A stretch of 61,240 nt of DNA, filler included, from Rhizaria sp. SCN 62-66 (GCA_001724265.1; 4 parts of 4 records of this genome joined end to end with filler, not necessarily neighbours in it), one strand, 5' to 3'; shown: positions 4,490 to 57,283, counted from the first letter of the whole stretch. Notes: a model not told the origin generated them from the sequence alone. Program-made: numbers and translations.

Positions 4490-5830
4490 ACCCCTAACTC
4501 CTGGCCTCTCTGTCTACTCTCTCTTTGGACCCTCCATACTGCTCTGCACAAAAGGTCATGGCGTTCCTTGCAGACTGCAAAAGGTGCGCACAAAACCTCA
4601 CTTGCGACGGAGAGACTTGTCCCGTACCTTTTTGAGCTGCGAGCTCCGCGTTGGTTATGCCGAGCATCTTCCTAAACCTCTTGATCGCGAAGAGCATTGC
4701 CGGCGTGGACTTGAGCACGAAGAGCATCGCCTGCATGCGCGACATCATCTTGGCGGCCGAGACCCCCTTGCGACGAACGTCGACTCCGCTCACGTCTTTC
4801 GAGCAGCCCGCAAGCGCGTAGAGAAAGTCATGCTGGCGCAGCCAAGCGTGATATGACTTGATGACGTGAGGTCGATCGAGTAGCTGGAGCAGGGACGTCC
4901 CGTAGACAGGGACGTGAAGTAGCGTCACGTCGTTGTGATAACACCACTTGCGGAGCGACGCCCTGGGGTGGCTGCAAGCGGAGTCGCAGATGGGCACCAT
5001 GGCACAGTTCTTGGAGCGGCCCACGAGCGTTGTGTCGCGCAGGAGCTGCACGTGCTCGGTGAATATCTCGCCGGTTGACATGTGCTGCTATTCACCTGAA
5101 CGATCATGTTGGACGGAGGGTTCGCGCACTCCGTCTCGTTGTAGTTCAAAAATTCTTGGACACGGTATTCATGTCTGTGTGGCGCTCGGAGTACTTTAGC
5201 CCCGCATTGATTGTCTTCTGCGCTACAATGTCAAGAGCTTCCTTTACTGTCTTCGTCGCGTCAGACAAAGTCTCTGGCTCAGCAGCACGCGCGACTTCGG
5301 TCGCGGGCGCAAGCGCAGGAAGAACACCATCCTCTTGTTCCTCTTCTTCGTCGTCGCCGTCGTCGCGCGCGCTTGTCTTGCTCTAGGTCGCCCACCGGCC
5401 CTTGCGCGAGCAACACCACAACGCATTACCTGCTTGGTGGCCGTATCAGCGGCGAGCGCGGCAATAAAAAGGTTGCGAAGCAAGAGGTGGGGGTGGTCAA
5501 GTGGCCTGCAAGCTACCGTGAGCCGGGTGACATCAAGTCATTGGAGCACATCGATTCTCGGTCTCGCTGACCGCACAGGGGCAAAGGCATCTGAGGCCTA
5601 CTTTGACGCAGTCTACGCGGCATACAATGAGACTATGCTTTACCACCCCTGCGCGAGCAGTTGCGTTGACAGGGTCGATGGCACGGTTCTTGACGAAGTC
5701 GACAACGTCCTCAAGGAGGGCAGCAAGAGCAGCTTCTAGACGCAGATCCTTATTATCAGCAAAGCGAGCGCGCGCCGCCGCAAGCGCGCCGCCAAGACTC
5801 GGCGCGGCCCGGCGCAAGTAAAGCGCAAGC
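4490..5830 (-). mobile_element. Decayed pogo/Tigger-like (DDE_1) transposase pseudogene
   Basis: ORF 4494-5081 has ICDSACSH...VTLLHVPVYGTSLLQLLD, resembling DDE_1 D..SH...LPP.TTS.LQPLD. A different frame upstream has RILNYNET (N.DET motif with D->N). 5533-5817 has LEAALAALL, weakly CENP-B HTH-like. Frameshifted; no TIRs found. Confidence 0.55.
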
Positions 5831-6583
5831 GGAGTCGGTCCAAGAAAGAGCGACTCGCAGCCTGTTACTCTGCTGCTGCTCTCGGTTACGTGTACCGCGG
5901 CGGCAGCGACGCTATTGATGCGCTAACTGCCGCCGCGCCGCTGCTGCCCACGGTCGCCGGCCTCGGTCTCTTGCTGCTTGGCTTCATCGTTGCCGCCCCC
6001 CATACTGGACACGCGGCTCAAAGTAACGATGTGAGAATTGGCTCTGTCGCAGGTGGCGGCGTGTTCATGTCCGGCAGTGGCCTAGACGGCTCTGGTCTAA
6101 CTGGCGTGGCTGGATACAAGGCAAATGAGCCGTATTTGTCGGTGGCGGCGGCGTCAGCAGCTGGTGTCGTCGTCGTCGGCGCGAGTCATGCGCTCGGCGG
6201 CGGCGGCAGATAATAACCGTGACTCCCGTGTTGTGGCCGCGGCGGGACAGGTCTACATCGCCGCAGGCCCCGAACTAATCGCGTCACACACCACTGCCGC
6301 GGGCGCGAGGCAAGGGATGCTGTATTTTGTCGACCTCTTAACTTGAACAAAACCCGGAGTTCAGTCATGTTAACCAGTATATAAGGGGCTGAATATGGTT
6401 ATGTTAGAATAAACAACACGTTTTGATTCATATACTTTTGTTAATTGCATGATTGATTTGTATTTTCAGAGTGCATGACTATGTGACCTCTATATGGAAA
6501 CGTCAATCAATCCATCGGTCAGCATGTCGATAGTCGCACGTATTTCGCAGGGTTTGCAACACAGCAGAAAGGCATCAATCCGA

Positions 6584-7964: not shown

Positions 7965-8934
7965 ATGCAGCACCCCCAGAGCCAGAACCAGGGCCCGATG
8001 CCCCCGCACGGCGGGCACATGGTTGCGCAGCAGCAGCAGCAGCCTTCGGGCCCCGTGCGTCTGCCTGACGAGCTGGTGATGCTCGTGGGCGAGCTGCTGC
8101 ACCCCGGCGAGCGCCGCGTGCACGCGCTGGAGAAACTCATCCGCTACCACAACTCCGTTGACGTCTTCGGCTTCCTGCTGTGGCATACGCCCGGTGTGAT
8201 GGCCGCGCTGGTGCAGGAGATCACGTTTCTCTACCCGATGCTTGACTCGCTTACCAAAGAATCATCAGGCCGCTGCTGCAACACGCTGGCGATGCTGCAG
8301 GGCGTGGCGTCCAACGCGGACGTGCGCATCCCGTTTGTGCGCTCGCAGATCTTCATGCTTGTGTACCCGTTCCTAGCAATCAAGGTTCCCAACAACACCT
8401 ACATGGACAACGTGCGCGTGACTGCGCTGGGCGTCATCGGCGCGCTCGTCCGCATGCCCGACCCCGAGGTCATCGAGGTGCTGCTGCAGTGCGAAATCTT
8501 CCCTCTGTGTCTCTCCAACATGGATTCCTCCGTCGCCATGCCCGCCGCGCTGTCGACGCTCATCCTGCTCCGTCTGCTCTCCGTTCCCAATGGCATGCAC
8601 TACGTCACGCAGAGCTACGAACGCTTCTACTTCATGCTCTCCGTGCTCGCGCGCGTTGCACAGCGCATCGACTCGCAACGTCTCGCGCGCTATCTCATCG
8701 GCTGCTACGCCAAGCTCGCCGCAAGTGTGTCGCCCCAGGCGCGTCTGACTCTGCGCCAGCTGATCCCACCCATCATGCGCGACGACTCGCTGCTCGCCTT
8801 CGTGGGCCAGGATGACGTGCGCGCCATGCTGCTCTAGCTCAAGGCCTTCTGCACTGAGCCCACGCTCGCGCCCGCTGCGGCTACCGCGACCGGCCAGTCC
8901 AACCCCGCCGGCATGGGCATGCAACAGGGCATCA

Positions 8935-9034: not shown

Positions 9035-9137
9035 GCAACAACAGCAACAGCAGCAGGGTCATGTTGTGCAGCAGCACCACGGTGTGCAGGTGCAGCAACA
9101 GCAGCAGGGCGGGCAGCCACAGGGCCAGCACCCCTGA
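7965..9137 (+). CDS. CNOT9: CCR4-NOT subunit 9 (Rcd1/Caf40) with in-frame TAG at 8835-8837 and a polyQ tail
   Basis: Rcd1 motifs LLWHTPGVMAALVQEITFLYP, SGRCCNTLAMLQGVASN, LVYPFL, VRVTALGVIGALVR and LLQCEIFPLCL. The frame stays open after TAG (LKAFCTEPTLAP...MGMQQGINV-Q39-...GQHP) to TGA 9135-9137. Confidence 0.9.
8940..9056 (+). repeat. CAG/CAA trinucleotide repeat encoding about 39 Gln
   Basis: Uninterrupted CAG/CAA run, in frame with CNOT9. Confidence 0.95.
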
Positions 9138-9615: not shown

Positions 9616-11511
9616 TCAGTCAGTCTCAAACATGTGCAGAGGCACCGAGGCCGCATACGCACGCAGTGCGTCGTCGCAGAAAGCTGCTAGCTCGGCCTCC
9701 AAGTCTGCGGGAAGCCCCCCAGCACCGGTACTGCCGAGCGCAGGCCCCTCGGCGGACCGCAACACGTGCTCCCGCAGCCGCGCCATAAGAGGGACCGCCT
9801 GCGCCTCTGCGCGCGCGCAAATAAAGGGCTCCAGTCCGCGCGCGGCGGACATCGGGATGCCGGCCAGCAGTCGCGGGCGCAGCGCGGCAAATACCAGCAA
9901 GTACTGCACGTGCGGCGGCGTAAACGCACCGCGCGCCTGCGAGAGGATAAGCTGCAGCTTTGGCCGCCACTCAATCACTTCGACAACGTCCTCATCGGCA
10001 ACAATCCCCAGGTCGTGACCCACGGCGGCGTTCTCGTACGCCTCCTTGGCCTGCACCAGCATTGCGTTGAGCCGCTGCACAAGAGCACGGAACGCCGGGA
10101 AAGAAAAGCGCAGCGTTGAGACCGTGGGCGCCACCTCAAGCGGCGGCCACAGTCCCGCCGCGGCCAAGTGCGCATTGGCGTCGAGCGTGTGATCCACGCA
10201 GCCGCGCAGCGCGGCCAGCACGGCGTCCGCGCGCACACGGTCCACGCCCTCCAGCTGCGGCTGCGCCTGTGCTAAGCAAAGCGCAGTGGTCGATCCGCCA
10301 GCGCGCAGCGGCGCAAAGCCCTCGAGCAACCGCGCCTGTTCAGCACCAACGGCAAAGGCAAGCGGGATCTGGAAGCCTTCGTACAGGTGGCCCAGCGCGC
10401 GCGCGTGCGCCATCATGTCGTCCATGATAACCACCGCGTCTAAACCGAGAGCGCGCAAGTGCGAGGCCTGTGCGGCGGCAGCCAACAGAGCGGCATGCTG
10501 CTCCAGCGGGGGCGCGCCTGCGTCTGCAAAAACGACCGTGGTGAGCGGCGCGAGCGCAGCGTCGGCAAGCAATGCCTGCACGCGCGCCAGGTGCGCGGGC
10601 GTCTGTCCGACGCAGGCATACACGAGCACTGTCGGTGGCCGCGCGGCCTCGCCAGCGGCGTCAGCGGGACCGTTCTGCGCCACCAAAGCGGCCGCGGCGG
10701 AGACGGCCAGAGTGGGCAAGTCAGCAGAACGCTCGCCGACAAGCGCGACGCGCATGCCGCGGCGCAGCGGGTGCAACAGATCGACGTGTTTGAGACCGGA
10801 GAAAAACACCGCACCTTCGAGAGCGCGCGCCGCGATAGATGGACACGCCGTCACAGCAGCCGCAGCAACAGCAACAGCAGCAGAAGACTCGCTATCTGCC
10901 TTGGCCGATGACATTGCTGTGGAGTGCGAAAGAGGCTGGTGCGTCAGATGCGTGGGCGCGGGCGCGGGCCGGCCGTCGAGCGGGACGCCGCACGCGTCGA
11001 CCGTGCGCCCGAGCCACGCTGCGCCGCAGGGGAAGCGCAACACGCGGTCAGTGGCGCGCTCGGGGACTGTGACGGCGTCGCCCGCAGCGACCTGGTGGCC
11101 CTGTGCGAGCAGTGCGGCAACCATATCGTGCTCCTGCACGCGCACAACCTGCGCGCGGACAACGCCGACACCGGGCACGGACGAGTGCACGTGCACGAGT
11201 GAACCCTGAGCGGCCTCGGGCACGCCGGTGAAGGAAATAACGCAGCCGCGGGAGACGCTCTTGACCTGTGGCAGCAGCGAGGGCGGCTGGCCCGCGGTGC
11301 CGTAGATGTAGTCGTCCTCGGTCACTTTGCGCTGCAGCGAGGCGGACTCCTGCGTCGGCGCCATACCCAGACCTATACCGGAGAACGAGCGGCGCGACAA
11401 CGAAGAGGAAGCATGGGGCAGCAGGGAAACGCCGCCTGTGGACCGGGCGGCGCGCATGGATGTGAGCAGCGCACGGGAGGACGCAAGCCTCTGTGTGACA
11501 CGGCTCAACAT
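9616..11511 (-). CDS. Divergent F1-ATPase alpha-subunit-like protein with probable mitochondrial presequence
   Basis: LGRTVDACGVPLDG, SGLKHVDLLHPLRRGMRVALVGER, VYACVGQ, VVIMDDM, ARLLE and GGSTTAL are collinear with F1-alpha motifs. The N-terminus MLSRVTQRLASSRALLTSMR...RRSFS is Arg/Ser-rich and lacks acidic residues. Walker A GKT is absent. Confidence 0.8.
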   Translation of the reverse strand: MLSRVTQRLASSRALLTSMRAARSTGGVSLLPHASSSLSRRSFSGIGLGMAPTQESASLQRKVTEDDYIYGTAGQPPSLLPQVKSVSRGCVISFTGVPEAAQGSLVHVHSSVPGVGVVRAQVVRVQEHDMVAALLAQGHQVAAGDAVTVPERATDRVLRFPCGAAWLGRTVDACGVPLDGRPAPAPTHLTHQPLSHSTAMSSAKADSESSAAVAVAAAAVTACPSIAARALEGAVFFSGLKHVDLLHPLRRGMRVALVGERSADLPTLAVSAAAALVAQNGPADAAGEAARPPTVLVYACVGQTPAHLARVQALLADAALAPLTTVVFADAGAPPLEQHAALLAAAAQASHLRALGLDAVVIMDDMMAHARALGHLYEGFQIPLAFAVGAEQARLLEGFAPLRAGGSTTALCLAQAQPQLEGVDRVRADAVLAALRGCVDHTLDANAHLAAAGLWPPLEVAPTVSTLRFSFPAFRALVQRLNAMLVQAKEAYENAAVGHDLGIVADEDVVEVIEWRPKLQLILSQARGAFTPPHVQYLLVFAALRPRLLAGIPMSAARGLEPFICARAEAQAVPLMARLREHVLRSAEGPALGSTGAGGLPADLEAELAAFCDDALRAYAASVPLHMFETD

Positions 11512-12084
11512 ACTGCGAGTGCGTTGCGTTGACTAGTTAGGGTAGTGCTTTGACAAAGGTCCGTTAGGCAATATCAAGGCTGTGTAAAGGGCGAAGTTCT
11601 GAGCGCCGATTGAAGGGTATATCAAGTGTAATAGAAGTGTGAGCGAGAGTGGTAATAAAAAAAAAACACTTCATGTAGGATAAGGCACAGCAGTCGCTAT
11701 TCAACGATGCCAGCTGGTGGTATAGGCCGTCGCAATTGGTCTCCAGTCAATCCTTCTTTCGGTCGGTTGGTCAGCAAAGGTTCGCAAAAAATCAGGGCGG
11801 GAGGGCAGCAGCGAATTGCAACTACCCCCTTATTTAAATGCCCTGTATTACGGTTTTATCTTCGTGAATGCATATTTACTTTTCAAACGAGAACAGCCGT
11901 AGACCTAACTTATTACAAAACCATATTATTTTTCACGCGGCGGTTGAAACCATAGCCTGGTACGAAGATTCGTTCCCCCCTCTCAACCCGCTGCTCTGCT
12001 TTGATTCACTCTGCCGCCTGCTATTTGTACTTGTCCAGGTCTTAGTCGTTCAGTGCCAACCGGAACGTTCCCTTGGTGACAACT

Positions 12085-25400: not shown

Positions 25401-26885
25401 TGAGCGCCTGCAGCGGCAGCAGGTCCGGGAAGAGCGCAATGACCGCGAGCGGGGACGCGCCGCCGAGCCGCAGGTGTTCGAGCGCGCGGTCGAAACGCAG
25501 CGCGCGCAGCAGTGCACAGCCGGCGCGGACGTGGAACTTGGCGAGCTGCGTGACCGTGGGCGAAGTGCGCAGCAGCAGCGCCAGCGCCTCGTCGACGGCC
25601 AGCCGCGCAAGGTATTGCTCAACCTGCGCGGCCGTTGAAGTGACCGTGAGCAGACAAACCTCGGAGTCGGAGGCCACGTAGCACGACGGCGGGTGCGGAA
25701 AGGGCGCGCGCGCGCAACCGCCCGTAGGCGTGGGGTCCCGGTCTGCCGTCACCGCGAAGGCGCCGCGGGGCACGGTGCACGCGGCCGCGGGCGCGGCGGC
25801 GACCGAGGGGATCGTCTGCGCAACGCTCGAGTCGACCATGGAGATGGCGGCGGCCGCGCCGTCGGTGCCCAACACGACAGTGTACTGCGGGCCGACTGTG
25901 GTGATGGCCAGCGGCGGGCTGGTGATGGTCGCCGGGTTGCGCTGCGCGGGTTCGCCGCTCTCGCACATGAACACGGCCAGGTCCGCGCGCGTCACCAGAA
26001 ACTCGTTCGTGGTGGAAATGGCCGTCACGCAGGGCGTCGCGCCATCAAGCGGCAGCGGCACGTCGACGACGGCGCCCGTCAGTGCGTTGACGATCGAGTA
26101 CTCGCGCTTGTAGCCGATGCAGAAGCTGGCGCCCGTCCACGCGATCGTGAGCACCGTGTCGGGGATCGCAAATTCGCGGATCAGGTCGAACTTCTCGCCC
26201 AAGTACTGGTAGATCATCACCTTGCGCTTGGCCTTGTGCGGGACGACCAGCGACACGGGTGCGCCCATGTGCGTGGCCGAGTCAGCGGAAGACGTCAACG
26301 GACTCAGCGCAAAGCACGTGCCGGCGTTGGCAATGTCGGTCTTGTCGGGAAACTTGCGGAGGCCCTCCAGGTCGAAGAGCATGAGCTTGGAGTCGGCCAG
26401 CACGATGAGCGCAGAGAGGCGCGGGCACACCTGTAAGGAAAAACAAATGAAGATAACAATGATACAACGATCATAATTAAGAGTAGAACCGTGCATTAAA
26501 GACGATTAGCGCGTATTATCGCTAGGTGGAAAGTAGAACTCGACGATGTGACAATAGCGTTGAGAACTAAGCAAAGACGTACTTGTAGCTGAGTGACGGG
26601 CTTCTTGGCAACGACAGTCTTCTTGACGACGAGATCAAACGTCGTGGACAGCGCGCCGGAGCTCCTGCCTGCGCCACCAGCGCCATCGCCGCCCGCGCCG
26701 CCGCTGGGCGATGACGCGTTGAGGTCTGAGCGAACGTACTGGTAGAGAAAGCCCAGTTTGGTGCCGACGTAGACGGAGACGCCCCAGGCCGCGATCGAGG
26801 CGATGCGGTCGCCCGAGGCAACCACGTCGGCGCCGATCGCCGTGCGGTATGCATGGAACGCCTCGAAGGAGGACGCGCCCGACAT
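17977..26885 (-). CDS. VPS39/TGFBRAP1 (Vam6/Vps3) family protein, about 2918 aa (exons 26885-26583, 26430-17977)
   Basis: CNH-like N-terminus (SIAAWGVSVYVGTKLGFLYQY, KKPVTQLQV, IREFAIPDTVLTIAWTGASFCIGYKREYSIVN). CHCR-like RARFRAFLQSNDQYD and ERIVLYARLGRHAEVV. C-terminal LDVLSVLPDSFPL...CPECMKLIGERTVVSVYP...HYKC zinc finger. Intron 26582-26431 (GTACGT...CAG) keeps frame. Ends TAA. Confidence 0.85.
23875..23935 (-). repeat. Hexamer repeat encoding an (SR)n dipeptide tract inside the VPS39-like gene
   Basis: Plus-strand (CCGAGA)n-like run; translation SRSRSRSRSRSRSRSRSR. Confidence 0.8.
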
Positions 26886-33464: not shown

Positions 33465-33564
33465 NNNNNNNNNNNNNNNNNNNNNNNNNNNNNNNNNNNN
33501 NNNNNNNNTTAATTAATTAANNNNNNNNNNNNNNNNNNNNNNNNNNNNNNNNNNNNNNNNNNNN
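33465..33564. other. Artificial contig linker N44-TTAATTAATTAA-N44
   Basis: Same 100-nt linker. Confidence 0.97.
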
Positions 33565-36242
33565 CCAAGTCCGCCGAGGACGCGGCCGGCGCAGAGGCAG
33601 CGGCAGCGGCGCTGGCGCCGCCGGCGCCGCTGGGGGCGTCGGCCGCGGCGAGCGCGGCGGCGGCGACGGCGGGCGCCGGCGGGGCCGCCTGCAGCACCAA
33701 CGGGTCGGCGACGGCGGCGCGCGCGGCGGCCAGCGCGCGCTGGTACTGCTGCTCGTCGGTGATGTTGTCAGGGCTACTGCTGCTGTTGCTGTTGTTGTTG
33801 TTGTTTTCGTTAGCGGCGACGAGGACCTGCTCAGTCATGGCGGCGATGTTGGCCGCCGCGGCGGTGACCTCCGCGCGCGCGCGATCGAGCCAGGCGCTGT
33901 TGACGACGTCGTCGACGCCGGCCTTGGCGCGCGCCTCAACGAAGGCCACCATGCCGTGCGGGCGGAAGGCGACGAGGCGCAGCGCGGCCACCAGCTCGCC
34001 CCAGCGCTCGCACAGCGCGGCGTGCGTGTCCTGCAGCCGCAGCAGCGAGCGCGACGTCAGCTCTGCCTCGGACTGGAACAGCGCCAGGTGCCGCACCACC
34101 GTCTTGGCCTCGGCAGAAGACGGCGGCTGCAGCGACACCGCGTCGGAGTCCGCGTCCGCCGCGCCCGCAGCGGCGGCAGCAGCGGCGGCGGCAGCATCGG
34201 CAGCGGCAGAGCCTGCATTGTGCGCGCCAGCGCCGCCAGTGCTGGGCGTGGGCAGGTGCGGCAGGTTGAGGGGGCGTGAGACGACGGCCGTGCCGCCAGT
34301 GGAGGCAGGCGCTCCGGCGCCGGCAGCAGCGCCAGCGCCCGCGGCGCCGGCGCCCGCGGAGCCCGCGGCGAGGGCGCCGGTGTGGGGCTTCGCGAAGTGC
34401 ACGGTGGCGCGCGGCGGGCGGGGGCCCTTGGGCAGCTGCGGGGGCGCGCCCGACAGCGAGGCGCGCAGCGGCTGCACGCCACCAGCGCTGCTGCTGGCGC
34501 TTTGGGCGGCTGCGGCGGCGGAGGTGGCGGAGACTGCGGCGGCATAGTTGGCCGCCGCAGACGCGTTGCCGCTGCCGCTGCCGCTGCCGCTGCCGTTGCC
34601 GTTGCTGCCGCTCTGGGACTGTGACTCCGAGAGCGCGGCGGGCGGTAGCAGGGGCAGCGCGCTGGCAGCGGCGGCGGCGGCGGCGGCGAGCGGCGCGACG
34701 GCCGTGGCGGGCGACAGCACGGGCGAGCCCAGCGACACGGCCGAGGGCGCCACGACGGGCCGCTCCGGCGGGGGCCCGAAGACGAAGTCGGGGTGCTCGA
34801 TCATCGTCTGCACGCAGGCCAGCGCGAACGGGTTGTCGTGCATCGAGCTCTGGACCTGCGGGGGGAAAGATGATTGCAGAACAAACATAGATATAAAAGA
34901 TAGATAAATAATTAAAAATAAAAATAAACAAAAGTATATTCTTAAATCGAGAGCATATATCTGGTGAGCGTACCGTCTCAACCTGCGGGCGGAGGAGGTT
35001 GGGCGCGAAGACGATGGCGAGGTTCTGCGCGGTCATCTTGTTGGTGGCGCTCTCTGCGGCGACGGCGGCCAGGTGAAGCACGAGGAACTGCAGGAAGCAG
35101 CGCGACTCGTGCGGCAGGCGGCCCGCGACGGAGCGCACGGCGGCGGCGCGCGCCATGGGGTCGGGCTGGCCGCCGAGCGCGGCGTTGGGTGCCGTGTTGC
35201 TGGTCTTGCCCGCGGCGATGAAGGCGTCGTAGAGCGTATGCGTCATCACGGGCTCGGGCAGCAGGCGCACGGCGAGCTTCAGCAGCGCGGCCAGCGCGTG
35301 CTCGTCGGCGCACTCGCGCAGGTCCGGGTACTCGGTCTTGTCCCAGCTCAGCTTGAGCGCGTCGACGACCGTCTTGTCGCCGGACACGCGGAACAGGCCC
35401 TGCATGGGTGCAACGCCGCGCCGGCGCAGCTCCAGCAGCACGGCGACGGCGATCGACTTGGCGCGCCGCACCGTAAAGGTCGCGACGGCGGCGCGGAAGT
35501 TCTCGAGCGCCTCGACCGACTCTGCGCGCAGCAGGAAGTCGCGCTTGGCGACGCCCGCCGCCGCGCCCAGCTCGAAATCGCGCGGCGAGAGGTCGGGGCG
35601 CGGGCGGATCACGCTGCCGCCCATCGGGATCGAGCCCTTGGCCTCGGTCGAAGAGGGGTCCTCCTGGTAGTAGAGCGTCGCGCCCTGGAACACGAACCAG
35701 CGCTTCTTGTACGAGGTCAGCGTGCCGCCGCCCTTCTTGTACAGGTAGCCCGTGTACAGCGCAGGGTCGTTGGGGTCGGAGCGCAGCGCGGAGCGGCGCG
35801 CAGCGTCGCCAACGTCGCCCTTGGGCACGAGCGTGATGTGTTCGAGCCGCTCCTCGCGCAACGCCTCGTCGATCAGCGGCTTGTCGCGGAACACCCACGA
35901 CACAGCCACCAGCTCCGCCACAGTCGAGTCGAAGGGGAAAAAGACCTCCGAGTTGGCGATTTGCGCCGTGTACTCGGCGTCCAGGTCGAGCCCAATGCCG
36001 CAGTCGGCCGCGCGGCGGTCGAAGCCGGTCTGGCCCTGGGACTTTGCGCGCGAGGCGAGGAAATCCAGCGCGACCTCGCGCAGCGGCGTCTGCGGGGGCG
36101 TCTCGAGCGTCACGGCGTGCGGGCCCAGCCGCACGCGCAGGCGGTACACGCCACCGTCGTAGGCCGCGGCCAGCGCGGCGGCCGCCACCGCAGCGGGGGA
36201 CTGCGCCGCGGGGTCCGTCTTGAGAGACAGGGAAGCGTCCAT
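33565..36242 (-). CDS. PH-domain RhoGAP (exons 36242-34974, 34855-<33565; 3' truncated)
   Basis: PH: TGYLYKKGGGTLTSYKKRWFVFQGATLYY...KGSIPM. RhoGAP: QGLFRVSG (Arg finger), ALLKLAVRLLPEPVM, NKMTAQNLAIVFAPNLLRP. Intron 34973-34856 (GTACGC...CAG) restores VQTMIEHPDFVF. Confidence 0.9.
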
Positions 36243-37108
36243 GGCGGCAGATGACAGTGCGTTTCACTCTTACACTCGGACAAGTGCTTGCGTTATGTGT
36301 GCTATGCGGTGCTTTGCTGAGTTATCGAGCTCAAGGGGCAGATAAAAGCACCGCCGGGGGCAACAGAAGCCTGAGGGAAGGGCAGGCACCGTGCGGAGCG
36401 GAAGCGGGGAGCGCGGGGGAAGGCGCGGAACGCGGGACGAGGGCTGGAGAACAGGAGCGCGTGTGGCGCGCGAGGCGGGCAGAAAAGGGGATTGTGAGCA
36501 CAATAAAAGAAAGGATAGTCAGAATTAGCAGAGGAAACATGGGTAGTGCTAAAATTAGGATGACACAGCGGACGTATTCGTCCAGCAGAGCCTGTGGTCG
36601 CGAGAAACAGGAATGTGGTGACGCGAGCGCAGCAGGGCCTGTCAGGGTGTCTCCTTGACCGGGACCTTTCGAAGGTCAGACAGTGTCATTAACGGAAATA
36701 GATAGCTGTAATATATAACTTCAATAGACAAAAGCGACAGGCAATTGCGAGACACTTGTCAATATCCACTATCAAGCTTCCACTGGACTTGATTGCGACT
36801 TGCTTTGCATGCACACGCCAAGCCTCCTCACCAGGCCCACAGCCCCAAAGAAACCGCACCGAGCTCCTTTGCTTTCTACCTCTGCAGCCCTCGATATAAC
36901 CCCCAGTTGTGCATAAACACAATGTTGCGCGTAACCTACGTTTGTTTCATAACTTTAACATTTGCTCTTATTTGCTTATAATAAGGATTCATGGTGATAT
37001 TAGTCATTTTGCGCAACATGCGGACCAAGCCAGCAGTCCGCTAGCTCACTATATTTATTTAAATTTTGTCCACAAAAACCAACAATTTTCGGGCATCCGA
37101 AAGTTAAA

Positions 37109-37181
37109 GCCGTCGTAACTCAGTCGGTAGAGTGTTCGGCTCTTAACCGATTAGCCGCGGGTTCGAGCCCCGCCGGTGGCT
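37109..37181 (+). tRNA. tRNA-Lys(CTT)
   Basis: Acceptor GCCGTCG/CGGTGGC, D-arm AACTCAGTCGGTAGAGT, anticodon arm TCGG-CTCTTAA-CCGA, T-loop GGTTCGAGCC, followed by an oligo-T Pol III terminator. Confidence 0.92.
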
Positions 37182-37689
37182 TTCTTTTTTTGCCCGTTCA
37201 TACCATGCACATCCCTTACTTTTCCGGTTCTTCTCTCTTATTTTGCTCCCCAGCGCTCTCACGGAATCACCCGCCGCCTCTGTAACGCGTTGCGCCGCAC
37301 CCCAGCGCACAACCAACAGAGAATCGTGAGCTTGCCACCACGACTGCAGTGTCGGTAGGTCCATCATAGTGGCAGGACCAACTTGATTTTTTGTTACCAC
37401 CGTGTTTGTGCCGTCCTGGTGATGTTAGATATGTGCTTATTTTCGCTCAACGACTCAGTCTCGAGCCACCAGTTGTTCAACAGTTGTTTTTGCGCCGCTT
37501 TCTGCGCGTGACCGAACTAGATGATGACGGATGGCGGAATTGGATGCGTTCGAGTTATGACTGTCCTGCGATGAAACCTCCGTCTTTCTAAATTTTGTTT
37601 GACAACCATAATTAATAACTCTTATTTTACACTTTCTCAAATTCGAATTTCTCGATTTGCTCATTCGTGCTCTGTAGAGCGATCGAAAG

Positions 37690-41974: not shown

Positions 41975-42534
41975 GCTGTAGCGTTACAGGTGATGCTTTG
42001 GCGTACAAAAGACGTGCGCGAAAGCGTTCAACGGCGATGTGAGGACGTTAAAGGCGCAGCTCTTGTTCACCAACACGAAAGATTGGTGGGCCTCTGCTGT
42101 CATTCGCCACGGGAGTGGGTGCGAAGATCAGATCGGACAATATATCAACGAGAAGACAGGGTCAGATAAGGGTGCGGGCAAGTTGAAGGTGTTATGCGGC
42201 ACCAGTACATAAAAAGTCGTCGCAGCAGACAGATATCGTGAAGCCAAACGGCTTTATCATCGTCCAAAATCATGACGCGAGATCGACTGGAGGTCGAAGC
42301 ACGAGGCAATTTAAAAACACCAACTTGAACCCCTGTTCAAGGTTTGAAACAGCATTTAAAAGAAAAATGAAAACTTTGCGTGCGTTTGGCACCGAAAATA
42401 ACATCTAATCACAGTCCTGCGATGCCTTTGCTGAGATATTTAGGTCGAATCTTACCTCCTCGGCATTCGTGACCTTGTTCGAAAACAATCCCTCTGAGCA
42501 CGGAACAAAATATACCCAAATGGCCTAGATGGTA

Positions 42535-42980
42535 TTCTTTGATAAATTAAATAATTTAATAAATATTATAAAAATATAATAAACTGATTTAAATATTTTT
42601 AAGTAGGAAATTAACTAATTATCCAAATAAGCATTTTGAAAACATTTGTACGAAATAATAATAATGAAACAATTTTTTATGAATATTTTATAACAAGAAA
42701 ATTAAATATTTTATGATAGAATTAGCTTTTTTACCCCAATCAACCTGAAAGGTATTTACTCAATTCATACAAATACCTGGCTTTCTTTAATTATAAATAT
42801 AAACAAAAAGATCAATAATTATTTCAAAACTCTTTAATTATTATTAATGCTTATGAATTATAAAAAGTAGCGGTTGTTTTTAAATTCATGTGTTTCTTTA
42901 TTAATATAATAAAAACATTTTATTATATTAATAAACTATTATTTACAAGCTAAGTTTTTAATTTAACTCTATTCTATAGA
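42535..42980. other. Very AT-rich island with an 18-bp-arm hairpin at 42897-42935
   Basis: Almost G/C-free stretch in a GC-rich contig. Contains TTTATTAATATAATAAAA-ACA-TTTTATTATATTAATAAA. Confidence 0.75.
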
Positions 42981-43757
42981 GCTTATCAGTTTTGGGCAGG
43001 ATGCGTCAAACACAGTGTCCGAGGAAGATACAATTTGTCTGTTAAGTTTGTCTATTTGTCTATCAGGTTATGCTATTCTTGAGCATGCACTCCCACGTCG
43101 TCTTCCCGCAGGACGACGCAGGCCGCGGCGTGACTCCGCGGATGGTCATGATGCGGGACCTCCGGTACTAGAAGAGTATCAACGACGTTGAGTACCTAGC
43201 ATTCTGAACGGTCGCCGTGTCGCCAGCGCCGAAAATGATCACCCCAGGGGTGGGCATCAAAACATATTTTGCCAACTGCGTCATGGCGTGGCGTGATAAT
43301 ATTTAATATTACAAGGACAGCTGTATAATACCATGTCTAATATTAGTACTAGTAACACCAACGTCCGACTGAGTGCGCACTCAAAGCAATTCGACAGTTG
43401 CAGACTGCGCGCATATGCGGTCGATGGCGGCCATGAGAGTGTTGCCGGAACGCAGCCACGTCTCCATGAGCGCCATCTTAAATTAATATCGACACGGGCG
43501 GCGTCTGTGATTTTGAGCATGAATGTGAGACGTGTTGTCAGGTCAGTGCGCGGCCCTACAGCACCTTTTTGCTCCCCGGATCTCGTTGATACCGTTTAGT
43601 TGCTCGTTACTTACTGATATGCACGTCACTTTAATAATGACTTGCTTTAAAATGAAACTTGCATTCAGTATGCAGCTAGTCTTTAACTATAAAATTTTGC
43701 CGGATAATCACGAAATCCTCAGAATTTGCAAGACTTTGAAGATTCTTAAGGATATGT

Positions 43758-43838
43758 GGTGTCGTAACAAAGTGGTTACTGTGGAAGACTAGAAATCTTC
43801 TGCCTTCGGGCGCGTGAGTTCGAATCTCATCGACATCG
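43758..43838 (+). tRNA. tRNA-Ser(AGA)
   Basis: Acceptor GGTGTCG/CGACATC with G discriminator. Anticodon arm GAAGA-CTAGAAA-TCTTC. Long variable arm GCC-TTCG-GGC, T-loop GTTCGAATC and a downstream T-run. Confidence 0.92.
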
Positions 43839-44082
43839 TTCTTTTTTTTTTTTGCTTGCCCGACCGCGCGCTCAGCCTTAGCCCGCCCGCGAAGGCCCAA
43901 CATCAATTCTTTTTTGCTTCTCACAACGCCTCAGGTCTTGACCAAAGTATGCACAAGCGTCACAATCAACAACTGCTCATATGTATTCATTCTAGGTATT
44001 CATGTTGTAAGTGTTCTCCGCAATACTGTCACTCTAACTACTAGTATCACATCGGTGTCCAGTCGCGCACTCAGTTTGGTCT

Positions 44083-48768: not shown

Positions 48769-48868
48769 NNNNNNNNNNNNNNNNNNNNNNNNNNNNNNNN
48801 NNNNNNNNNNNNTTAATTAATTAANNNNNNNNNNNNNNNNNNNNNNNNNNNNNNNNNNNNNNNNNNNN
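48769..48868. other. Artificial contig linker N44-TTAATTAATTAA-N44
   Basis: Same 100-nt linker. Confidence 0.97.
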
Positions 48869-51241
48869 ACCGCCCAAGCCGCCGCCCCGCTTGCGACAGT
48901 GTTGTCGCAGCTCAAGCTGTACACTGCGCAGTCAATGAGTGCTGAAGAGAAGAGGCTCGCAAAGGCATGCAGCGACCTCGAACGCATCAGCAAATCTGTC
49001 GCTGCGCCCGACGTCACGGCGTTGGCCGCACTCGTTGCAGCAAGCCCTGGCTGGCCCGCGAGCGTGGGCCCGGAGCTCGAAATCAGTAACGTCAAGTATG
49101 CAGCCGCGCGCAAAGCTTTTGAAGCCGCACTCGCTGATGCCGCTACGACCACGACTCCACGCGAAGTTGTTTTTGAGGCTGATGTTCCTGCTTCTGCGCT
49201 CGCCACCGACTTCGCCTTGGGCACAGCTGAGCTGTGCGGTGTGCGCTTTAGTTTCAGTGCGCGCCGTGGCTGCAACTGCGCGTCCAAGCCTTTGTCTAGC
49301 AGCTTAGGTGTGCGCGTCAGTGGCGCCGGTGTGGAGGACGTGAACGCGCACTGCGCATGTGGGCTTGAGTGCAAGGTGAAGGCAGAGCCAGTGTGGAAGG
49401 CCCTGGCCGCGCTTTACAAAGCATGTGGTGCACGCGCGCTCGCTGTTGATAAGCTTGTCTCCACCAACAACGACGATAGCGACGACGATGAAGACTGCCA
49501 CATCAACGGCGCTGTAGGCACTCCATCTATTGATAATTCTGCAATCAAAGCTGTGAATCCGGCTGCCACTGCTGACGTGCTTGTTGCTGCTCCTCCTCTT
49601 ACAACGGTTGCAAGCACATTTGGCTGCGTGAACGTCTCCGTTACTGCTGGCGTGAAGTCGGAAAGTAGCAACCAAGGCCAGACTCGCGGATCCGGTCAGG
49701 TGTGGTTGACAGGAGGCAATCATGATGTGGGCGAGGATGCAAACGAAAGCAAGTCTCATGTGGAGTCCGACATCAACGCTAAGAACGCAGCGTCTGCTGT
49801 TGAATCGGGAAACGGACGCACAGCCGTCATCACGGTAGGCCTTCCGTCAGCACTAAACGTTGCGCTGTCTCAACACAATGCAAGTAACACCCAAACAAGC
49901 AACAACACCACTGTGTTGCGTGTGCGCTGCAGTGTGTCGTTTCCTGACGTTGTGCAGCAGGCGCGCGCATTGCAGCTGTGCGTGGACGCTGTGGCAACCG
50001 ATATCGTTGCACAAGCCGATGCCAACCAGCAACGTGTGCTTGCGCTGGAGGCAGAGAAAAAGGTTTGGCAGGTTTCCAAGGCCGATTATGAGAAAAAGAT
50101 TCTCATGCTAGAGTGTCACCAGGAGAAGTGCAAGGTCGATTATGAAAAGAGGGTTCGTTTGCTCGAGTCTGACAAGGAGGCGTTGCAGAACAGGCGAAAC
50201 GCGTTGGAGACTGAAAAGCGGAGTTGGCAGAAGTGCAAGATGGATTATAATTCCAGGATTCGTTCGCTAGAGACTGACAAGGAGGCTCCGGAAACTAAAC
50301 TAACGCCGCACTGGCAGCGAGTTGCTGATGATGAAGCATATGAAAAGACTAAAGCAGAAGAGGAAGCTAAGGCAAAGGCAGAGGAAGTGGAGGCTCGACG
50401 TCGAGATGCGCCGTGGGTTACTTTACTGAAGTCTTCTGCGTGGGAGGCCGAGTTCAACACGCACATCGCGCATACTCTTAGTGTCGCTGGTATTTGGGGT
50501 TTTCGGCCCCCTAAGCGCAAACTTCGCGCGCCATCGTCAGCGGTACTTGGTGCTCTGCAAAAAAAGGCGCGTGATCGCATGTTGTCTTACTCAGCATTAA
50601 CTCTAAAGACCGCATATCATTCGGATTTTTTAATGAAGGCACAATTTCGTGACCCTCAGACGCAAGAGTTTGTGGATTACTGTGTGGTAATCCGGCTTGA
50701 TGATGCAAAGTTTCCCGCCACCGCCGCTTATGTTCGCTTTGCTGTGAGTAAGTGGAACTTCTCCTACTTAGTGCACCATTGTTTTGTGCCACCTGGCCAT
50801 AGTACAGCAGCAATGCCTTTTTTCACGCTCTGCCGCGACGATGTCAACGTGTTATGTAAAGATGAGTATTTAATGGTGCTGCCGGACGCTGATATCGTCT
50901 ACGGGGAGTATACAGCACCTGGTGCTGACGCAGGCCTGATCTATCCAGTCGGCTCAGTGCTCGTTTATCCGCACTGTGTGGTACCTTCTCCATCTTTCTA
51001 TGGTGACACACCTATATTCATCGTTGTTTAGCCCTGCGCAGCAAGTCTCCTGCGCGGTGCAGTGCCAGTCGGTCGCGTGATGTCATGCGTGCAGGGGACA
51101 ACAGCGACGAAAGCAGACAACAGTAGCATGCCTTTCGATGATGCTGTGATGCGCCGGTTTACGCATCATTGCAAGAGTGGGGAGTGTGATAGGGATGCGA
51201 GCACGTACTCCTATTGCGTCTTTAATAAATTTATGGAATGA
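48869..51241 (+). CDS. Coiled-coil protein with divergent C-terminal cyclophilin-like domain; in-frame TAG at 51029-51031 (5' truncated)
   Basis: Long ORF with repeats (K.DYEK.I..LE). VVIRLDDAKFPATA, YPVGSVLV and DTPIFIVV*PCAASLLRGAVPVGRVM parallel cyclophilin IVIEL...PKTA, PG.LSM and SQFFI...LDG...FGRV. The frame stays open for 69 codons after TAG, to TGA 51239-51241. Confidence 0.55.
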
Positions 51242-52129: not shown

Positions 52130-55100
52130 TTAGAATGGCTGGTGCACGCGCAGTCCGGAGCCAGCAAGTTTCTTCAGCTCCTCAAGCATCTCGTCAGCAC
52201 TCATGCCGCGCTCAACGCCCACTGCAGCCGCTGCGACCTCGCTCTCAGTCGCCACCGGCCCACTGACACCGGCAGTTGCGGCAGTTGCGGCGGCGGCACC
52301 TGGCGTCATCACCGCGATCGCGCCATCATCATCATTTGCCACAGTGTCGGTTGTTGCGCGAGTACCACTGGAGTTACTAGCCGCAAGCAGCGCGGCGCGC
52401 GCCTAGGCGTTGTTGCAGCGGACAGGCCCGTGTGAAAAGAGCCCACTGGGGTCGTCCTCCGCACTCCACGCCGCCGAGTCGCCAACCCCGGGCCCGCGCG
52501 GGCGCCGCGGCGGCAGCGGCACGGGCGGTCCCCCGCCGCTGACGCTGCCCATGCGCAGCTGTTCGAGTCCCGACTCCGGATCTGCCTCGGTCCACGCGCG
52601 CAGCCCCATGGTTTCGAGTGCTTCGTTGCGCGCCACGCCCTGCAGCGACAGCGCGGCGACACGCTGCTGGTTGCCCCAGTGCTCCAGCGTGAGGTTGCGC
52701 ACGGCGAGCACGGCCCACTCTCGGAGGAACGGGTTGTGCGCGCGCACGAGGCCGGCCGCGGAGGTCTCGCCCGCACCAGCCGCGGCGGTGCAGTCGAGAA
52801 CGCGCTCCGTGGCGCCCACAGCGCCGAGGGCAGTCTGAGCGCCGCCGCGGGCGTCCAAGTGTGCGGCGTTGCCCAGCAAGCGTACGCAGTCGACCTAAGA
52901 CATATTAAGGGGTTAAGGGAGATAACAAATTTCATACAAATTGGTTAGCGTTAATAGATATAAAGAGCTTTTAAAAAGAATGCACGAATGATGAGATACT
53001 TAAACTAAACGTCGCAAATTTCGGTGTACAGACACATACCTGGAATGAGAAGGGACTGCGGTACTTGCCGGGCCGCTTCTTACTGGCGGCCGGTTCCGTC
53101 GTCGCATCAGCGCTAGCGCCTTCATCCTTCTCTTCCCCGTCATCGCTCACCGCCGAACTGTTGCCATCGTTGCTGGTGCTCATGTTCTTACCGGCCGCAA
53201 TCGCGCGGGCTTCGTCCTTGAGCTCGGCCAGTCCGTCGCCGGCGCCTGCGGGGAGCTCGTCACACGCGGCAGCGGCAGTGAGCAGTTGCACTGCGACAAG
53301 CAGCGGGGATACGAGCAAATCACACCGTAGCGCACCGATTGAGTCACTGCTCGATTGCGACTGTGACTCTGACTGTGAGTCCGCTGACCGAGACTAAGAC
53401 TGTGGTAGGGTCTGTAACTGTGACTGGGGCTGAGGCGCGGGCACAGCGCACCGTGCGGCGGCGGCAACGAGTGCAAGCGTGGGGCCGTGTGTCCGCAGGA
53501 CACGGGCAGCCGGACCCTCACTCTCAGCCACTCTCTCAGTGTTACCCGCAGTCGCACTTGCACTCGCGATCCCCGTCTCGGCGGCGGTCGGACTTGCGGT
53601 CTGATCGAGGGCGAGTCTGACTGGCAGCGGGCCGGGCGCCGGGTACAGCGCACGGTCCAGCGCGTGCAGCGACGGCGCCAGCGCGGCCAGCGCGGCGTCG
53701 GCGCGCGCGCTCGCGGAGGCCCACGCGCGCGCGGAGGCCGAGGCGGGGAGCGGTTGCGGCAGCGGCGAGGGCAGCGGCGGCGGGGCGCGGCCTGTGGAGT
53801 CAGCAAGCAGCAGCGAAGGGCGGAACACTGAGCCCCATCCGTTGCGCACATCAGCGTACACCACCATCTCACTCTCACTGTTTTTATCGCTCGAATTGCG
53901 ATTGCTATCGCTAGTGCTGATGCTGTCGGTGGGGCTTTGGGCGTCGTTGGTGGCAATCAGCCCTTCCGCCTCTGCCTCGGCATCGTCCGCAAGCAGCGCA
54001 GCGAGCCCCGACAGCGCGTGCACGGCAGGATGCGCCCAGTGCAATAACCCTGCAGACGACACAAGCGCCGGGGTCAAACCAGTCGCGGCCGCGGTCACCG
54101 CAGCGGTCGCAAGCACTGACCGCGCGACAGGCGCAGTCTTCGCGGCAGCGGCAGTCGCATTCGTCGCAGAGGCAGCGGCACTGCCAGCACTCGCGGCATT
54201 GGTGGCGGGCGGCGGGGCAAGCAAGTCAAGCGGCGACATGCGCAGCGGGGCGTCGAGCCAGCCAGCCACCGCCGGCGCCTCAAATCCGCTGCTCAAGGCC
54301 ACAGTACAGCCGCTACCAGGGCTGTTGTGAGTGGTGTGAGCGCTCTGTTGGGGGCGGCGTGAGTCGCAAAGTGCGTGCGCGCGCGTGGCGGCAGCAACGC
54401 GGCCCACGAGGTCCATCGCCGCGCCAGTCGCCGCGGCCAGCGAGCGCACCTCCGGCCGCAGCCGCGCCGCCGCGCCGCCGTCGGTCAGCGGCAGCCATAG
54501 AGATCCGGGGGCGCCGGGCCGCGCGCCCGCAGCAGACGCGGCGCCAGCCGCGGCGGCCAGGTCGCCCGCAGCGGTGTCGATGGCGGCGAAGAGACGCGCA
54601 GAGGCGACCGTAAGCGCGGCCACCGACCGCAAGCGTAGTTGCCGCAGCCGGCGGAGGCACCGCACGAGCCCGCCAGGAACAGGCGCAGCGGCGGCGGTCA
54701 GCGCGGCGGCGGCAGCAGCGCGCGCGGCGTCAGCGTCCGTCGCCTCCAGTGCGGCCGCGGCGGCGACGGCAGTGGCAACGGCGCGCGCGGCATTGGGCGC
54801 CCTGGCAAAGGCCTTCTTGGCGGCGGCTTCCGTAGCGACGGCAACGTCCGCGGCATCGGCGAGCATCGCGGCGGCGGCACGCGGGACCAAGAGCGGGTCC
54901 GCGGCGAGCGCAACGCTTTCAAGCAGCGCGCCGCGCCAGACCGACAGCGGGCGCGCGCAGGCACCGCGGGTGAAGGGCGCCTCGCCGGGGTCAGCGGTCG
55001 GAGTCGCGGTCGCGCTCGCCGACACCAGCGCCGCAGTCGCATTCGGCAGCGCACCGGCGACACCGCTCGTACTGCTGCAGGCGGTTTCCTGTGCGTGGGC

Positions 55101-56948
55101 GCCGGAGCGCGTGTGCGGGGCGGGCGCAGGCGGCAGCGGCGCGGCGTGCGGCGCCGCGAGCGCGAATAAACCACGCTTGATCCCATTTGCACTCAAAGTT
55201 GCAGCCGCAGTAGAGAGAGGCGCAGTCGAGAGAGGCGTGGGGGCGGGCAGGGCGGCGTCAGGCTCTGTGGTAGAGCGCGCAGGCGGCTGGTACCACCCGG
55301 GGCGGCGGCCCGCGGTGGCGGGCATGTCTGCGTCAAACGCAGGCTCACCGTCATCATCTGCAGCGACAACATCGTCTTGCTCCGGCACATCGTTGTCATC
55401 AATCGCATCGTCATCGGCGTCTTTGTCGTTCGCGTCGCAGTGTTCGGGGTGAGCCAGGAAGATGTCGTGTGCGGTCAAAAGCTCTTGCGCGGCCTCCTCT
55501 GCGGCGTCGTCGTCATCGTGGTCCCATTCGCCGTCGCTGTCAGCGGCGTCGTTGTAATCATCAGCCTCATCGGTGCTATCAGCCTCGTTGTCAGCGGCGA
55601 TCTCGGCGTCCCACAGTGCGCCCCACGCCGGCGAGTCCTCAGCTAAAGCCAACGCAGCGCTTAAACTCCTCGCATCATTCTCATGCTCACGGTCACAGCC
55701 ACTTGACCTTTGCTCACAGTCGCTTGCGGAGCGGGGCGCACGGGCCGTGGTGTCGCTGTTGCGGCGCTCACGGGGCACCCAGCGCGCGGCGCGCGTCGCG
55801 ATCGCAGGCGCCGCGGCGGCAAGCTGGGGCAGCGTCGGTCCGAGCAGCAGCGGCAGCAGCGGCGCCCAGAGGGCAGACTGCGACAGCGCAAGCGCACGGA
55901 CGCGGCTCACCACGGCACCGTTGTTGCCGTCACTGGTATTACTATTGGCAGTGGGATTGGCGTTTAGTGCAGCGACAGACCACGAGAAAAGCGCGCCGTC
56001 GTCGTCATTATTAGCGATGTGGTCTTCTGCGTGTGCATGTGCATTCTTATTGTTGTTGTTGTTGCCAATGTTGACTGTGAGCAACAGGGAAGAATGAAGC
56101 AGCCCCCAAAAGGCGTCAGCAGTCTCGGCATCAGCGTGGGTAGCAACGCAGCGCCACACACGCGCACGCCACGCCTCTTTATCCACACAGTCGCTCCTTG
56201 CGCCTTCACTGTTGTTGCGTGCGTTAGAGTTACTGCAGTTGCTGTTGCTGCTGGTGCTGATGATAGAGGCAAAAAACAGAGGGAAGAGTTGGGCGCGCGC
56301 GCTCGCAGGGGCGAGGCCCGGGCCGGCGCAGGCGTTGGCTGCAGTGCGCATCAGAGCGCGCGCAAGACGGGCGAACGGCCCCGCAGCAGTCACAACAGGA
56401 CGACCGTGACGGCGACGAGTGTTTGCGGTGGACGTCAGAGGTGCAGACCGCTCAGTGCGAGAGAGTGCGTCAGGCACGTTGTCGCCGTACAACGCGCAAA
56501 GAAGACGCAGCAGCACGTCCACGACGCTGCGCTGCGCGGCACCGGAGACGGGGAAGGGGCGGGTGAGTGCGGTGGCGACAGAGGCTTGTGCGCCGGCAAA
56601 CGCGCCAGCGGCCGCTGCGGCACACGGGAGCGCCCACATGCGGGCCAGGCGCGAAGCGGTCATCACCGTGGCTGTTGCGGCGGCGGCGACGGCGGCCTCA
56701 GAATTAGCGCCTGCGTCCGCGTCGGCGTCGGCATCGGCACAGTCGGCTGCGACGGCGCGGTAGGGCGTGTAGGCTGCGAGGGGCAGCGCCACGGTGTGTT
56801 CGGCAAGGGCGAGGCAAGCACTCGCAATAGAAGACGTGAGCTCAGGCGTAGGCTCCGCGGGGAGAGCACCGCGCTTGACTTGATCGACGAAGGCGGCGAG
56901 CGGCGCGAGCGCGGACTCGAGTGCCGCCACGGCCTCTGAGTCAGACAT
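52130..56948 (-). CDS. Ataxin-10/Ctr86-domain protein, about 1557 aa, with two in-frame TAGs (exons 56948-53040, 52894-52130)
   Basis: FQVDCVRLLGNAAH...VLDCT...HNPFLREWAVLAVRNLTLEHWGNQQRVAAL is the ataxin-10 C-terminal domain. Intron 53039-52895 (GTATGT...GCTAAC...TAG). ORFs 53394-56948, 52971-53318, 52403-52879 and 52130-52342 join into one frame if TAG 53394-53396 and TAG 52403-52405 are sense. Ends TAA. Confidence 0.8.
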
Positions 56949-57283
56949 CGCGAAGCGAGGGATTTGAAGAGGCGAGAAAACGACCTTCTGATCGACAACA
57001 TTAGGTTATATAAAGGTATATGAGTTTTTTCAAAGTGTTTCATAAGATTCTTAAATTATATTTCTTGAATCAGTCTGTGTGTGTCAATATTTATATTTTC
57101 ATTTCGTCTAACCTCAACCCACTTTTCCCGCTCCACCACAATCGCTCCGCCAACCACATTCTTTAATTTGCGCACTCGACTCTCTGCTGCCATTGCCACC
57201 ACACATTGATTCATGCACCACCCCATCTTGGCCACCTGCTGGCATTTGTGCGTACCCGTCGTCGCTTTCTGTGTCTCAGCAGG

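Follow-up and report, generated by a model that had tools for sequence, protein, structure and literature searches.

The TAG codon at 8835–8837, which lies in frame within the gene for CNOT9 (Rcd1), a conserved subunit of the CCR4-NOT complex, is probably translated. In the window, the whole stretch of 61,240 nucleotides that was analysed here, the evidence points to a GC-rich, intron-poor eukaryote in which UAG is likely to be a sense codon, and UAA and UGA the stops. Coding goes on in frame past a TAG in three genes, as judged by protein homology in one of them and by codon statistics in the other two.

Reassignment of UAG alone has precedent in nuclear codes, in only a handful of lineages according to the available excerpts of two reports (PMC5304391, PMC11687900). 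A further UAG-only case, in a GC-rich, intron-poor and non-ciliate genome, would be useful if true, and, with UAG used so sparingly, it would show the capture of a stop codon at an early stage. Gene callers that assume the standard code have truncated the public entries, CNOT9 at residue 290 and another protein at its own TAG. Which amino acid does the codon specify? Two of the sites can be anchored in protein families and these two point to different residues, so one well-chosen site can mislead. The features discussed are collected in Table 1.

Table 1. Positions of the features in the window, with the evidence or remarks for each
Feature	Position	Strand	Evidence or remark
CNOT9/Rcd1 coding sequence before the TAG, codons 1–290	7965..8834	+	Pfam Rcd1, human CNOT9 matches, AlphaFold2 (AF2) model
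In-frame TAG (codon 291), mid-way along the predicted final helix (283–297)	8835..8837	+	Sequence, translation, AF2
Predicted CNOT9 coding continuation, 99 codons	8838..9134	+	Codon score, GC3, composition
Poly-Gln run in the CNOT9 tail, 39 CAG/CAA codons	8940..9056	+	Sequence
TGA, likely true stop of CNOT9	9135..9137	+	Sequence, translation
Divergent ATP synthase alpha/beta-family protein, nucleotide-binding domain only	9616–11520	-	E = 3.9e-15
CNH-domain (Vps39-like) protein, about 2,800 residues	17977–26505	-	In-frame TAG absent
Spliceosomal intron, 152 nt	26431–26582	-	GTACG start, C/T-rich tract and CAG end
Utp13 homolog, about 1,650 residues	27334–32844	+	In-frame TAG absent
Spliceosomal intron, 118 nt	34856–34973	-	GTACG start, C/T-rich tract and CAG end
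tRNA genes Lys(CTT) and Ser(AGA)	37108–37182 and 43757–43839		In spacers; neither reads UAG
Spliceosomal intron, 196 nt	45819–46014	-	GTACG start, C/T-rich tract and CAG end
In-frame TAG, gene of an unnamed family (ORF 48821–51241)	51029..51031	+	Collinear; 15 of the 16 homologs have Lys here and one has Arg
Post-TAG coding part with invariant LLRGAVPVG block, ends in TGA	51032..51241	+	HMM of 16 homologs
Predicted coding continuation, 118 codons, to putative GTATGT 5' splice site	53040..53393	-	Codon score
In-frame TAG in a Gln-Ser repeat, large unnamed gene (ORF 52971–57005)	53394..53396	-	Sequence, codon score

The CNOT9 gene and its in-frame TAG

The CNOT9 reading frame starts with the ATG at 7965, meets the TAG at codon 291 and has its next in-frame stop in the TGA at 9135–9137. 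The first-pass annotation had described a TAG in frame within an otherwise intact CNOT9 ORF, and both sequence and translation agree with that description. The protein belongs to the CNOT9 family by an Rcd1 domain that scores above the curated cut-off and by an all-helical armadillo fold that is superposable on solved CNOT9. The Pfam Rcd1 profile (PF04078) matches residues 48–285 over profile positions 8–248 of 260, with a score of 192.4 bits (cut-off 37.7; E = 1.2e-56), and the matches to human CNOT9 chains span residues 36–285 (E = 7e-45). Both of these local matches end 6 residues ahead of the TAG. CNOT1, the bearer of the CN9BD, is absent from the window.

The translation around the TAG is ...MRDDSLLAFVGQDDVRAMLL-TAG-LKAFCTEPT.... 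Downstream the frame continues with LKAFCTEPTLAPAAATATGQSNPAGMGMQQGINV, the CAG/CAA run and a short His/Val/Gln-rich end before it reaches the TGA. This continuation comprises the end of the helix, an Ala/Thr/Pro linker and a Gln-rich tail, and the composition becomes AT-rich only past 9137. Reading the TAG as sense completes the last armadillo helix and adds the poly-Gln tail. The best explanation is a CNOT9 protein of 390 residues, with its last helix running through the TAG and its Gln-rich tail ending at the TGA.

A structure model was made with AlphaFold2 from the query, with the TAG read as Gln, and 76 of the 99 family homologs described below; these were hand-picked, mainly near-duplicates being dropped. 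The model has a mean pLDDT of 91.7, and in the region of the final helix the pLDDT is 97 for residues 281–290 and 93 for residues 291–300. According to the model, a stop at codon 291 would cut a confidently predicted final helix mid-way. Human CNOT9 and yeast Caf40 account for the 12 best-ranked PDB matches listed, which reach to rank 15 (TMt 0.91–0.95); against human CNOT9 structures the TMt is 0.92–0.94. The human and yeast structures (PDB 2FV2, 4CRU, 4CV5) have the same Rcd1 armadillo fold (TMt 0.92–0.95, rmsd 1.4–1.7 A over about 266–271 columns) at an identity of only 31–36%, and the motif of their last helix is also found in the window protein. The latter differs from them in that the helix is poorly conserved after the TAG (LKAFC as against LLxNL), and in its long poly-Gln tail and the in-frame TAG itself. 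This comparison was made without residue-level superposition and does not judge the alignment register of the TAG.

Coding signal beyond the CNOT9 TAG

A codon log-odds score was trained on 11 confident genes of the window (10,600 codons, zero in-frame stops). The first 30 codons past the CNOT9 TAG score +0.74 bits per codon in frame 0 versus -0.90 and -0.55 in the other two frames, and have a GC content of 0.71 and a GC3 of 0.87. In the 90 nt past the TAA or TGA ends of the 11 control genes, the frame-0 score ranges from -0.66 to +0.21 and the GC content from 0.07 to 0.57, and the next in-frame stop comes after 2–20 codons. The 30 codons past the CNOT9 TAG look coding in frame 0, unlike all 11 control flanks.

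Openness of the frame past the TAG means little here, since the stretch is GC-rich and carries the CAG/CAA repeat and all three forward frames are open across the region. Within the poly-Gln repeat the codon score cannot tell the frame. The score is also high for antisense shadow frames, and it is therefore taken as support and not as proof. A scan of the window for stops flanked by coding-like sequence was dropped as a count, since antisense shadow frames of GC3-rich genes confound it.

The TAG at 51029–51031

The best evidence for decoding of TAG in the window is the site in ORF 48821–51241. When the C-terminal 268 residues of this ORF were searched, 17 proteins were found, the query itself, which ends at the TAG, and 16 homologs with 32–47% identity. 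Most of these homologs cover 85–99% of the region (two cover 65–67%) and so run past the TAG position. All 16 are from unnamed contigs in ENA, Logan or MGnify, and no Pfam match was found for the gene. Aligned with them, the query has ...TPIFIVV-TAG-PCAASLLRGAVPVGRVMS where the homologs have ...WFIVFKPCAATLLRGAVPVGRVMS, and the alignment is collinear across the TAG. The family-invariant L-L-R-G-A-V-P-V-G is located after the TAG.

An HMM of the 16 homologs gives 261.8 bits for the full region and 165.4 bits for the part ahead of the TAG. The 69-residue tail behind the TAG retains all of the invariant family residues and by itself scores 81.3 bits (E = 7e-26), or 100.3 bits (E = 4e-32) without entropy weighting. 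With a tail that scores 81–100 bits against its family, this TAG must be read. The posteriors at the site are 0.42–0.85 for Lys, 0.10–0.13 for Arg, 0.009–0.056 for Gln and 0.004–0.03 for Leu.

The GC3 of this gene is 0.54, much below that of the neighbouring genes. Since it has this low GC3 and is part of a multi-copy family, it could be a young pseudogene. Two database versions of the protein, 4 residues apart, both stop at the TAG. A run of N lies within the 5' end of the gene, and the database copy (P0178) reads through this gap. Some members of the family have a Cys/His-rich N-terminus (..WCDTCVNVVCGHC..).

Other in-frame TAGs and stop codon usage

When ORFs were delimited by TAA and TGA only, three long ones were found to carry a TAG inside the coding part. 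In the large unnamed gene on the minus strand, the TAG at 53394–53396 lies within a degenerate (CAG TCN) Gln-Ser repeat, ..CCA CAG TCT TAG TCT CGG TCA... This TAG stands where the repeat mostly has Gln, and a single transition separates it from CAG. Over codons 30–120 past this TAG the frame-0 scores are +0.71, +1.10 and +0.44, and those of the other frames are negative. The ORF runs into a donor-like site, GTATGT, at about 53039.

Two further ORFs with TAGs are less clear. ORF 4942–6213 on the plus strand, also delimited by TAA and TGA, has two TAGs, with coding-like scores on both sides of the second; a TAG of this ORF is at 5737–5739. The ORF has no sensible start codon and no Pfam family match on either strand. 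It was left as uncertain, and may be an intron-containing gene or merely a shadow frame. ORF 4491–5087 on the minus strand (197 codons) has a sub-threshold match to the DDE_1 transposase (E = 0.0013) and a weak HTH match, and ends in AGT TAG GGG TAA TAA. The TAG may be the stop or the second-to-last sense codon; either reading fits, and the site is uninformative.

Of the 11 control genes, 7 are terminated by TGA and 4 by TAA, and TAG is absent as a terminator. The absence agrees with a code that lacks UAG stops, as weak evidence, since the sample is small and a flagellate of the fornicate group with the standard code is given as having UAG at only 7 of 170 stops (excerpt of PMC9161772). Counting the three TAGs as true stops would give an unremarkable stop usage of 3 in 14. 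The standard code does not easily explain why it is only the TAG flanks that look coding or conserved, and none of the 11 TAA or TGA flanks.

The well-supported in-frame TAGs number only 3 in about 14,000 codons, and all lie in the last quarter of their ORFs as delimited here. That UAG is far rarer here than in known UAG-sense organisms speaks against reassignment. Neither this rarity nor the last-quarter position of all three TAGs is explained by reading UAG as a sense codon.

If UAG is sense, it would be decoded by a tRNA with the anticodon CUA or by a near-cognate tRNA-Gln or tRNA-Lys. The release factor eRF1 would presumably no longer recognise UAG well, and a loss of UAG recognition by eRF1 has been proposed for Iotanema in the excerpt of PMC9161772. 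Rfam and tRNA scans of the window found no tRNA(CUA), the only tRNA genes being tRNA-Lys(CTT) and tRNA-Ser(AGA). An eRF1 gene was not found among the window ORFs that were scanned against Pfam.

Position of the CNOT9 TAG in the Rcd1 family

An exhaustive HMMER search with CNOT9 found 979 relatives at E <= 0.001. The full-length relatives that head the list, self excluded, have 35–41% identity, and no close relative was found in the homolog searches, the best non-self match being at about 40%. The named top matches are taxonomically mixed and include an ichthyosporean, a mite, Cryptosporidium, a chytrid and a diplonemid. A protein atlas search with the unaltered part ahead of the TAG gave no usable match. 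From 171 fetched homologs with a domain hit, the 99 in which the domain was covered through the C-terminal helix were kept and aligned by MAFFT L-INS-i, and HMMs were built from them without the query. The end of the family reads F-x-x-V-L-K-D-D-x-x-T-K-R-[W/C]-L-x-Q-L-L-x-N-L. In its Gln column Q is present in 66 of the 99 sequences; the next most frequent residues are T (8), R (6), N (4), K (4) and H (3).

Is this the column of the TAG? The first-pass annotation had placed it on the conserved Gln of the last Rcd1 helix, and this is the best register by hmmalign, hhalign and a register scan, with moderate confidence (0.4–0.6). By hmmalign the TAG is on the Gln column, with one gap and a posterior of 0.4–0.5. 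By hhalign, local as well as global, it is on the same column, with a confidence of 5–6. In an ungapped register scan of the helix, from which the TAG residue was omitted, the Gln register scores +3.0 bits, the next best register -3.2 bits and the register with the TAG on the conserved Leu -5.3 bits. In a MAFFT alignment of 14 full-length sequences the TAG came to lie on the preceding column. This register was set aside and the profile methods preferred, because the family QLL had been dragged into the poly-Gln tail.

The residue itself is less well constrained than its position. Summed over all alignments by HMMER Forward, reading the TAG as Gln changes the score by +2.0 or +3.1 bits relative to X, and reading it as Leu by -0.3 or -0.2. 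In posterior terms Gln has 0.13–0.25, Leu 0.06–0.07, and Lys, Arg and Glu about 0.06–0.08 each. The window CNOT9 is divergent, having the family consensus residue in 31 of the 70 columns that are as conserved as the Gln column. At the four columns with a Gln consensus it has M, Q, Q and L. Cutting the protein at the TAG loses only 0.7–1.4 bits of family score. The CNOT9 site tells little about which amino acid is inserted, and its single-site case for Gln is weak. The suggestion that it is the best single-site evidence for Gln is not upheld, given the low Gln posterior and the far better anchoring of the TAG at 51029–51031, on Lys.

Gln, Lys or Leu

When the posteriors of the two anchored sites are multiplied under a flat prior, Lys receives 0.48–0.83, Arg 0.11–0.12, Gln 0.04–0.11 and Leu 0.003–0.03. 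The two family alignments point to different residues and together favour Lys over Gln. The CNOT9 site and the site in the Gln-Ser repeat lean toward Gln, and the best-anchored site toward Lys. The first-pass annotation had argued for Gln rather than Leu. Leu is disfavoured at CNOT9 as well as in the joint estimate, and Lys competes with Gln.

Precedent leans toward Gln: PMC5304391 names the reassignment of UAG or UAR to Gln as the commonest variant. No nuclear code in which UAG means Lys was found in the literature searched, which does not prove that there is none, and no GC-rich organism with rare in-frame UAG is named there. Our overall estimate is about as follows. Gln comes first, at somewhat below an even chance, and Lys and a mixed or other reading come after it on level terms.

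Gln, Lys and Tyr are the residues that near-cognate tRNAs insert at UAG, and both anchored sites would be compatible with a mixture of such decoding by tRNA-Gln and tRNA-Lys. A less likely but still serious view is that UAG is a rare non-Gln sense codon in a GC-rich non-ciliate, which means Lys or is decoded ambiguously by near-cognate tRNA-Gln and tRNA-Lys. In the ambiguous case release factor 1 would have stopped recognising UAG with no dedicated suppressor tRNA in existence, and the reassignment, if true, would be at an early, low-usage stage. In the Lys case, if true, the nuclear code would be a variant absent from the literature searched.

Alternative explanations

The alternative that survives best is that UAG is still a stop, leaky or subject to programmed readthrough, at which near-cognate tRNAs for Gln, Lys or Tyr act often enough to be useful, so that each protein is made in two lengths, the longer with a mixed residue. 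We consider this rather improbable. It stays alive because in-frame TAGs are so rare and because each of the three comes within the final quarter of its ORF. The base after the TAG is C at two of the three sites, and C is known as the leakiest +4 base in eukaryotes. In addition, the residues to which the anchored sites point, Gln and Lys, are among the near-cognate insertions at UAG. Readthrough mediated by tRNA-Gln is noted in the available part of a preprint (PMC13192750). However, the invariant block of the 48821–51241 gene comes after the TAG, and a product that is mostly truncated would lack the best-conserved part of the family. Two motifs known to stimulate readthrough are UAG-CAR-YYA, of the TMV type, and stop-CUAG; both types of context are absent, the three sites reading TAG CTC AAG, TAG CCC TGC and TAG TCT CGG. 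Nor is TAG the terminator of any control gene.

Improbable to a greater degree is the standard code. In this case the TAG is a true stop, CNOT9 has 290 residues, and the downstream sequence is a 3'UTR or the relic of a recent truncation; the other two TAGs are true ends or young nonsense mutations. Database gene callers do end CNOT9 at L290. The family homology of CNOT9 past the TAG is negligible (+0.7 to +1.4 bits), the TAG is one transition from the abundant codon CAG, and 3 TAG ends in 14 would be ordinary. Yet the TAG flanks are coding-like and the 11 true 3' flanks are not, and the 69-residue tail of the second protein keeps its 81–100 bits and every invariant residue. A stop would also halve the confident CNOT9 helix. 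In itself it is improbable that about 17 genes would contain three nonsense mutations that are tolerated, with a conserved CCR4-NOT subunit among the genes hit.

An error of sequencing or assembly, or a private polymorphism of the sequenced isolate, is highly improbable. It is true that the scaffold is a draft and contains runs of N. However, two lengths of database ORF, 279 and 290 residues, are 100% identical to the window protein and end exactly at L290, and ORFs that end at the CNOT9 TAG come from 6 contigs (JGI/IMG, ENA, MetaClust, Logan), which may share reads. The TAG at 51029 is common to two sequence versions that differ at 4 residues, although these assemblies too may share reads.

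We give the least credence to a very short in-frame intron that removes the CNOT9 TAG, a possibility that the first-pass annotation had raised in its 21-nt form (GTGCGC...CTCTAG, 8817–8837) and for which a 27-nt form (8817–8843) can also be drawn. GT and AG dinucleotides are present for both, and homology is neutral on the question because spliced and unspliced HMM scores are about equal, at most about 1 bit apart (237.2–237.6 bits for the 21-nt and 240.9–242.5 bits for the 27-nt form versus 238.2 and 241.6 bits unspliced), but the candidates are unlike the introns of the window in GC content, donor motif and length: the three delimited introns are 118, 152 and 196 nt long with a GC content of 0.30–0.39, start with GTACG and have a C/T tract at the end, whereas GTA[CT]G is absent from 8600–8840 and in-frame GT..AG pairs across the TAG can begin only at 8802 or 8817, with a GC content of 0.62–0.72. 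Splicing would also remove the residues aligned with T-K-R-W-L, and an intron is no explanation for the TAG at 51029, which is collinear in its family alignment.

Comparison with known codes

In the nuclear code of Iotanema spirale UAG means Gln, and UAA and UGA are the stops (excerpts of PMC5304391 and PMC9161772). The code proposed here is like it in that UAG alone is sense, in a non-ciliate protist, with Gln as one of the two leading candidates. The in-frame UAGs of Iotanema are described as numerous enough for statistical analysis, which gave Gln with near-certainty, whereas the present window has 3 sites in some 14,000 codons, the best-anchored of them on Lys. A change in the GTS motif of eRF1 is also reported there for Iotanema.

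The rhizarian exLh, as described in the excerpt of PMC5304391, has a UAG-only reassignment to Leu, with UAA and UGA as stops. Its transcripts carry 384 in-frame UAGs in 71 genes, a far higher density than that seen here. UAG is likewise Leu, and UAA and UGA stops, in uncultivated phyllopharyngean ciliates (excerpt of PMC11687900). In contrast with these UAG-Leu codes, Leu is disfavoured at both anchored sites of the window (0.06–0.07 and 0.004–0.03).

The AT-rich ciliate Oligohymenophorea sp. PL0344 reportedly reads UAA as Lys and UAG as Glu. A change of a UAR stop to Lys would then be possible in a nuclear code, although it is UAA there, and not UAG, that means Lys.

Context of the window

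The genes of the window are GC-rich (GC3 0.54–0.90) and the spacers AT-rich; both strands are used and introns are few. In addition to the three delimited introns there is a fourth putative splice donor, GTATGT. Introns are rare; two ORFs run for 2,842 and 1,836 codons without one. A homolog search with the dymeclin protein of the window found only the self match. The runs of N, which mark gaps in the assembly, are at about 17466, at about 33512–33560 and at 48812–48870. Within a gene-free gap, the 1 kb at 42001–43000 has a GC content of only 34%. The CNH-domain and Utp13 proteins are laden with low-complexity sequence, in long runs of Ala, Ser, Asp and Glu. The protein of the ATP synthase family has an Arg/Ser-rich N-terminus that resembles a targeting sequence.
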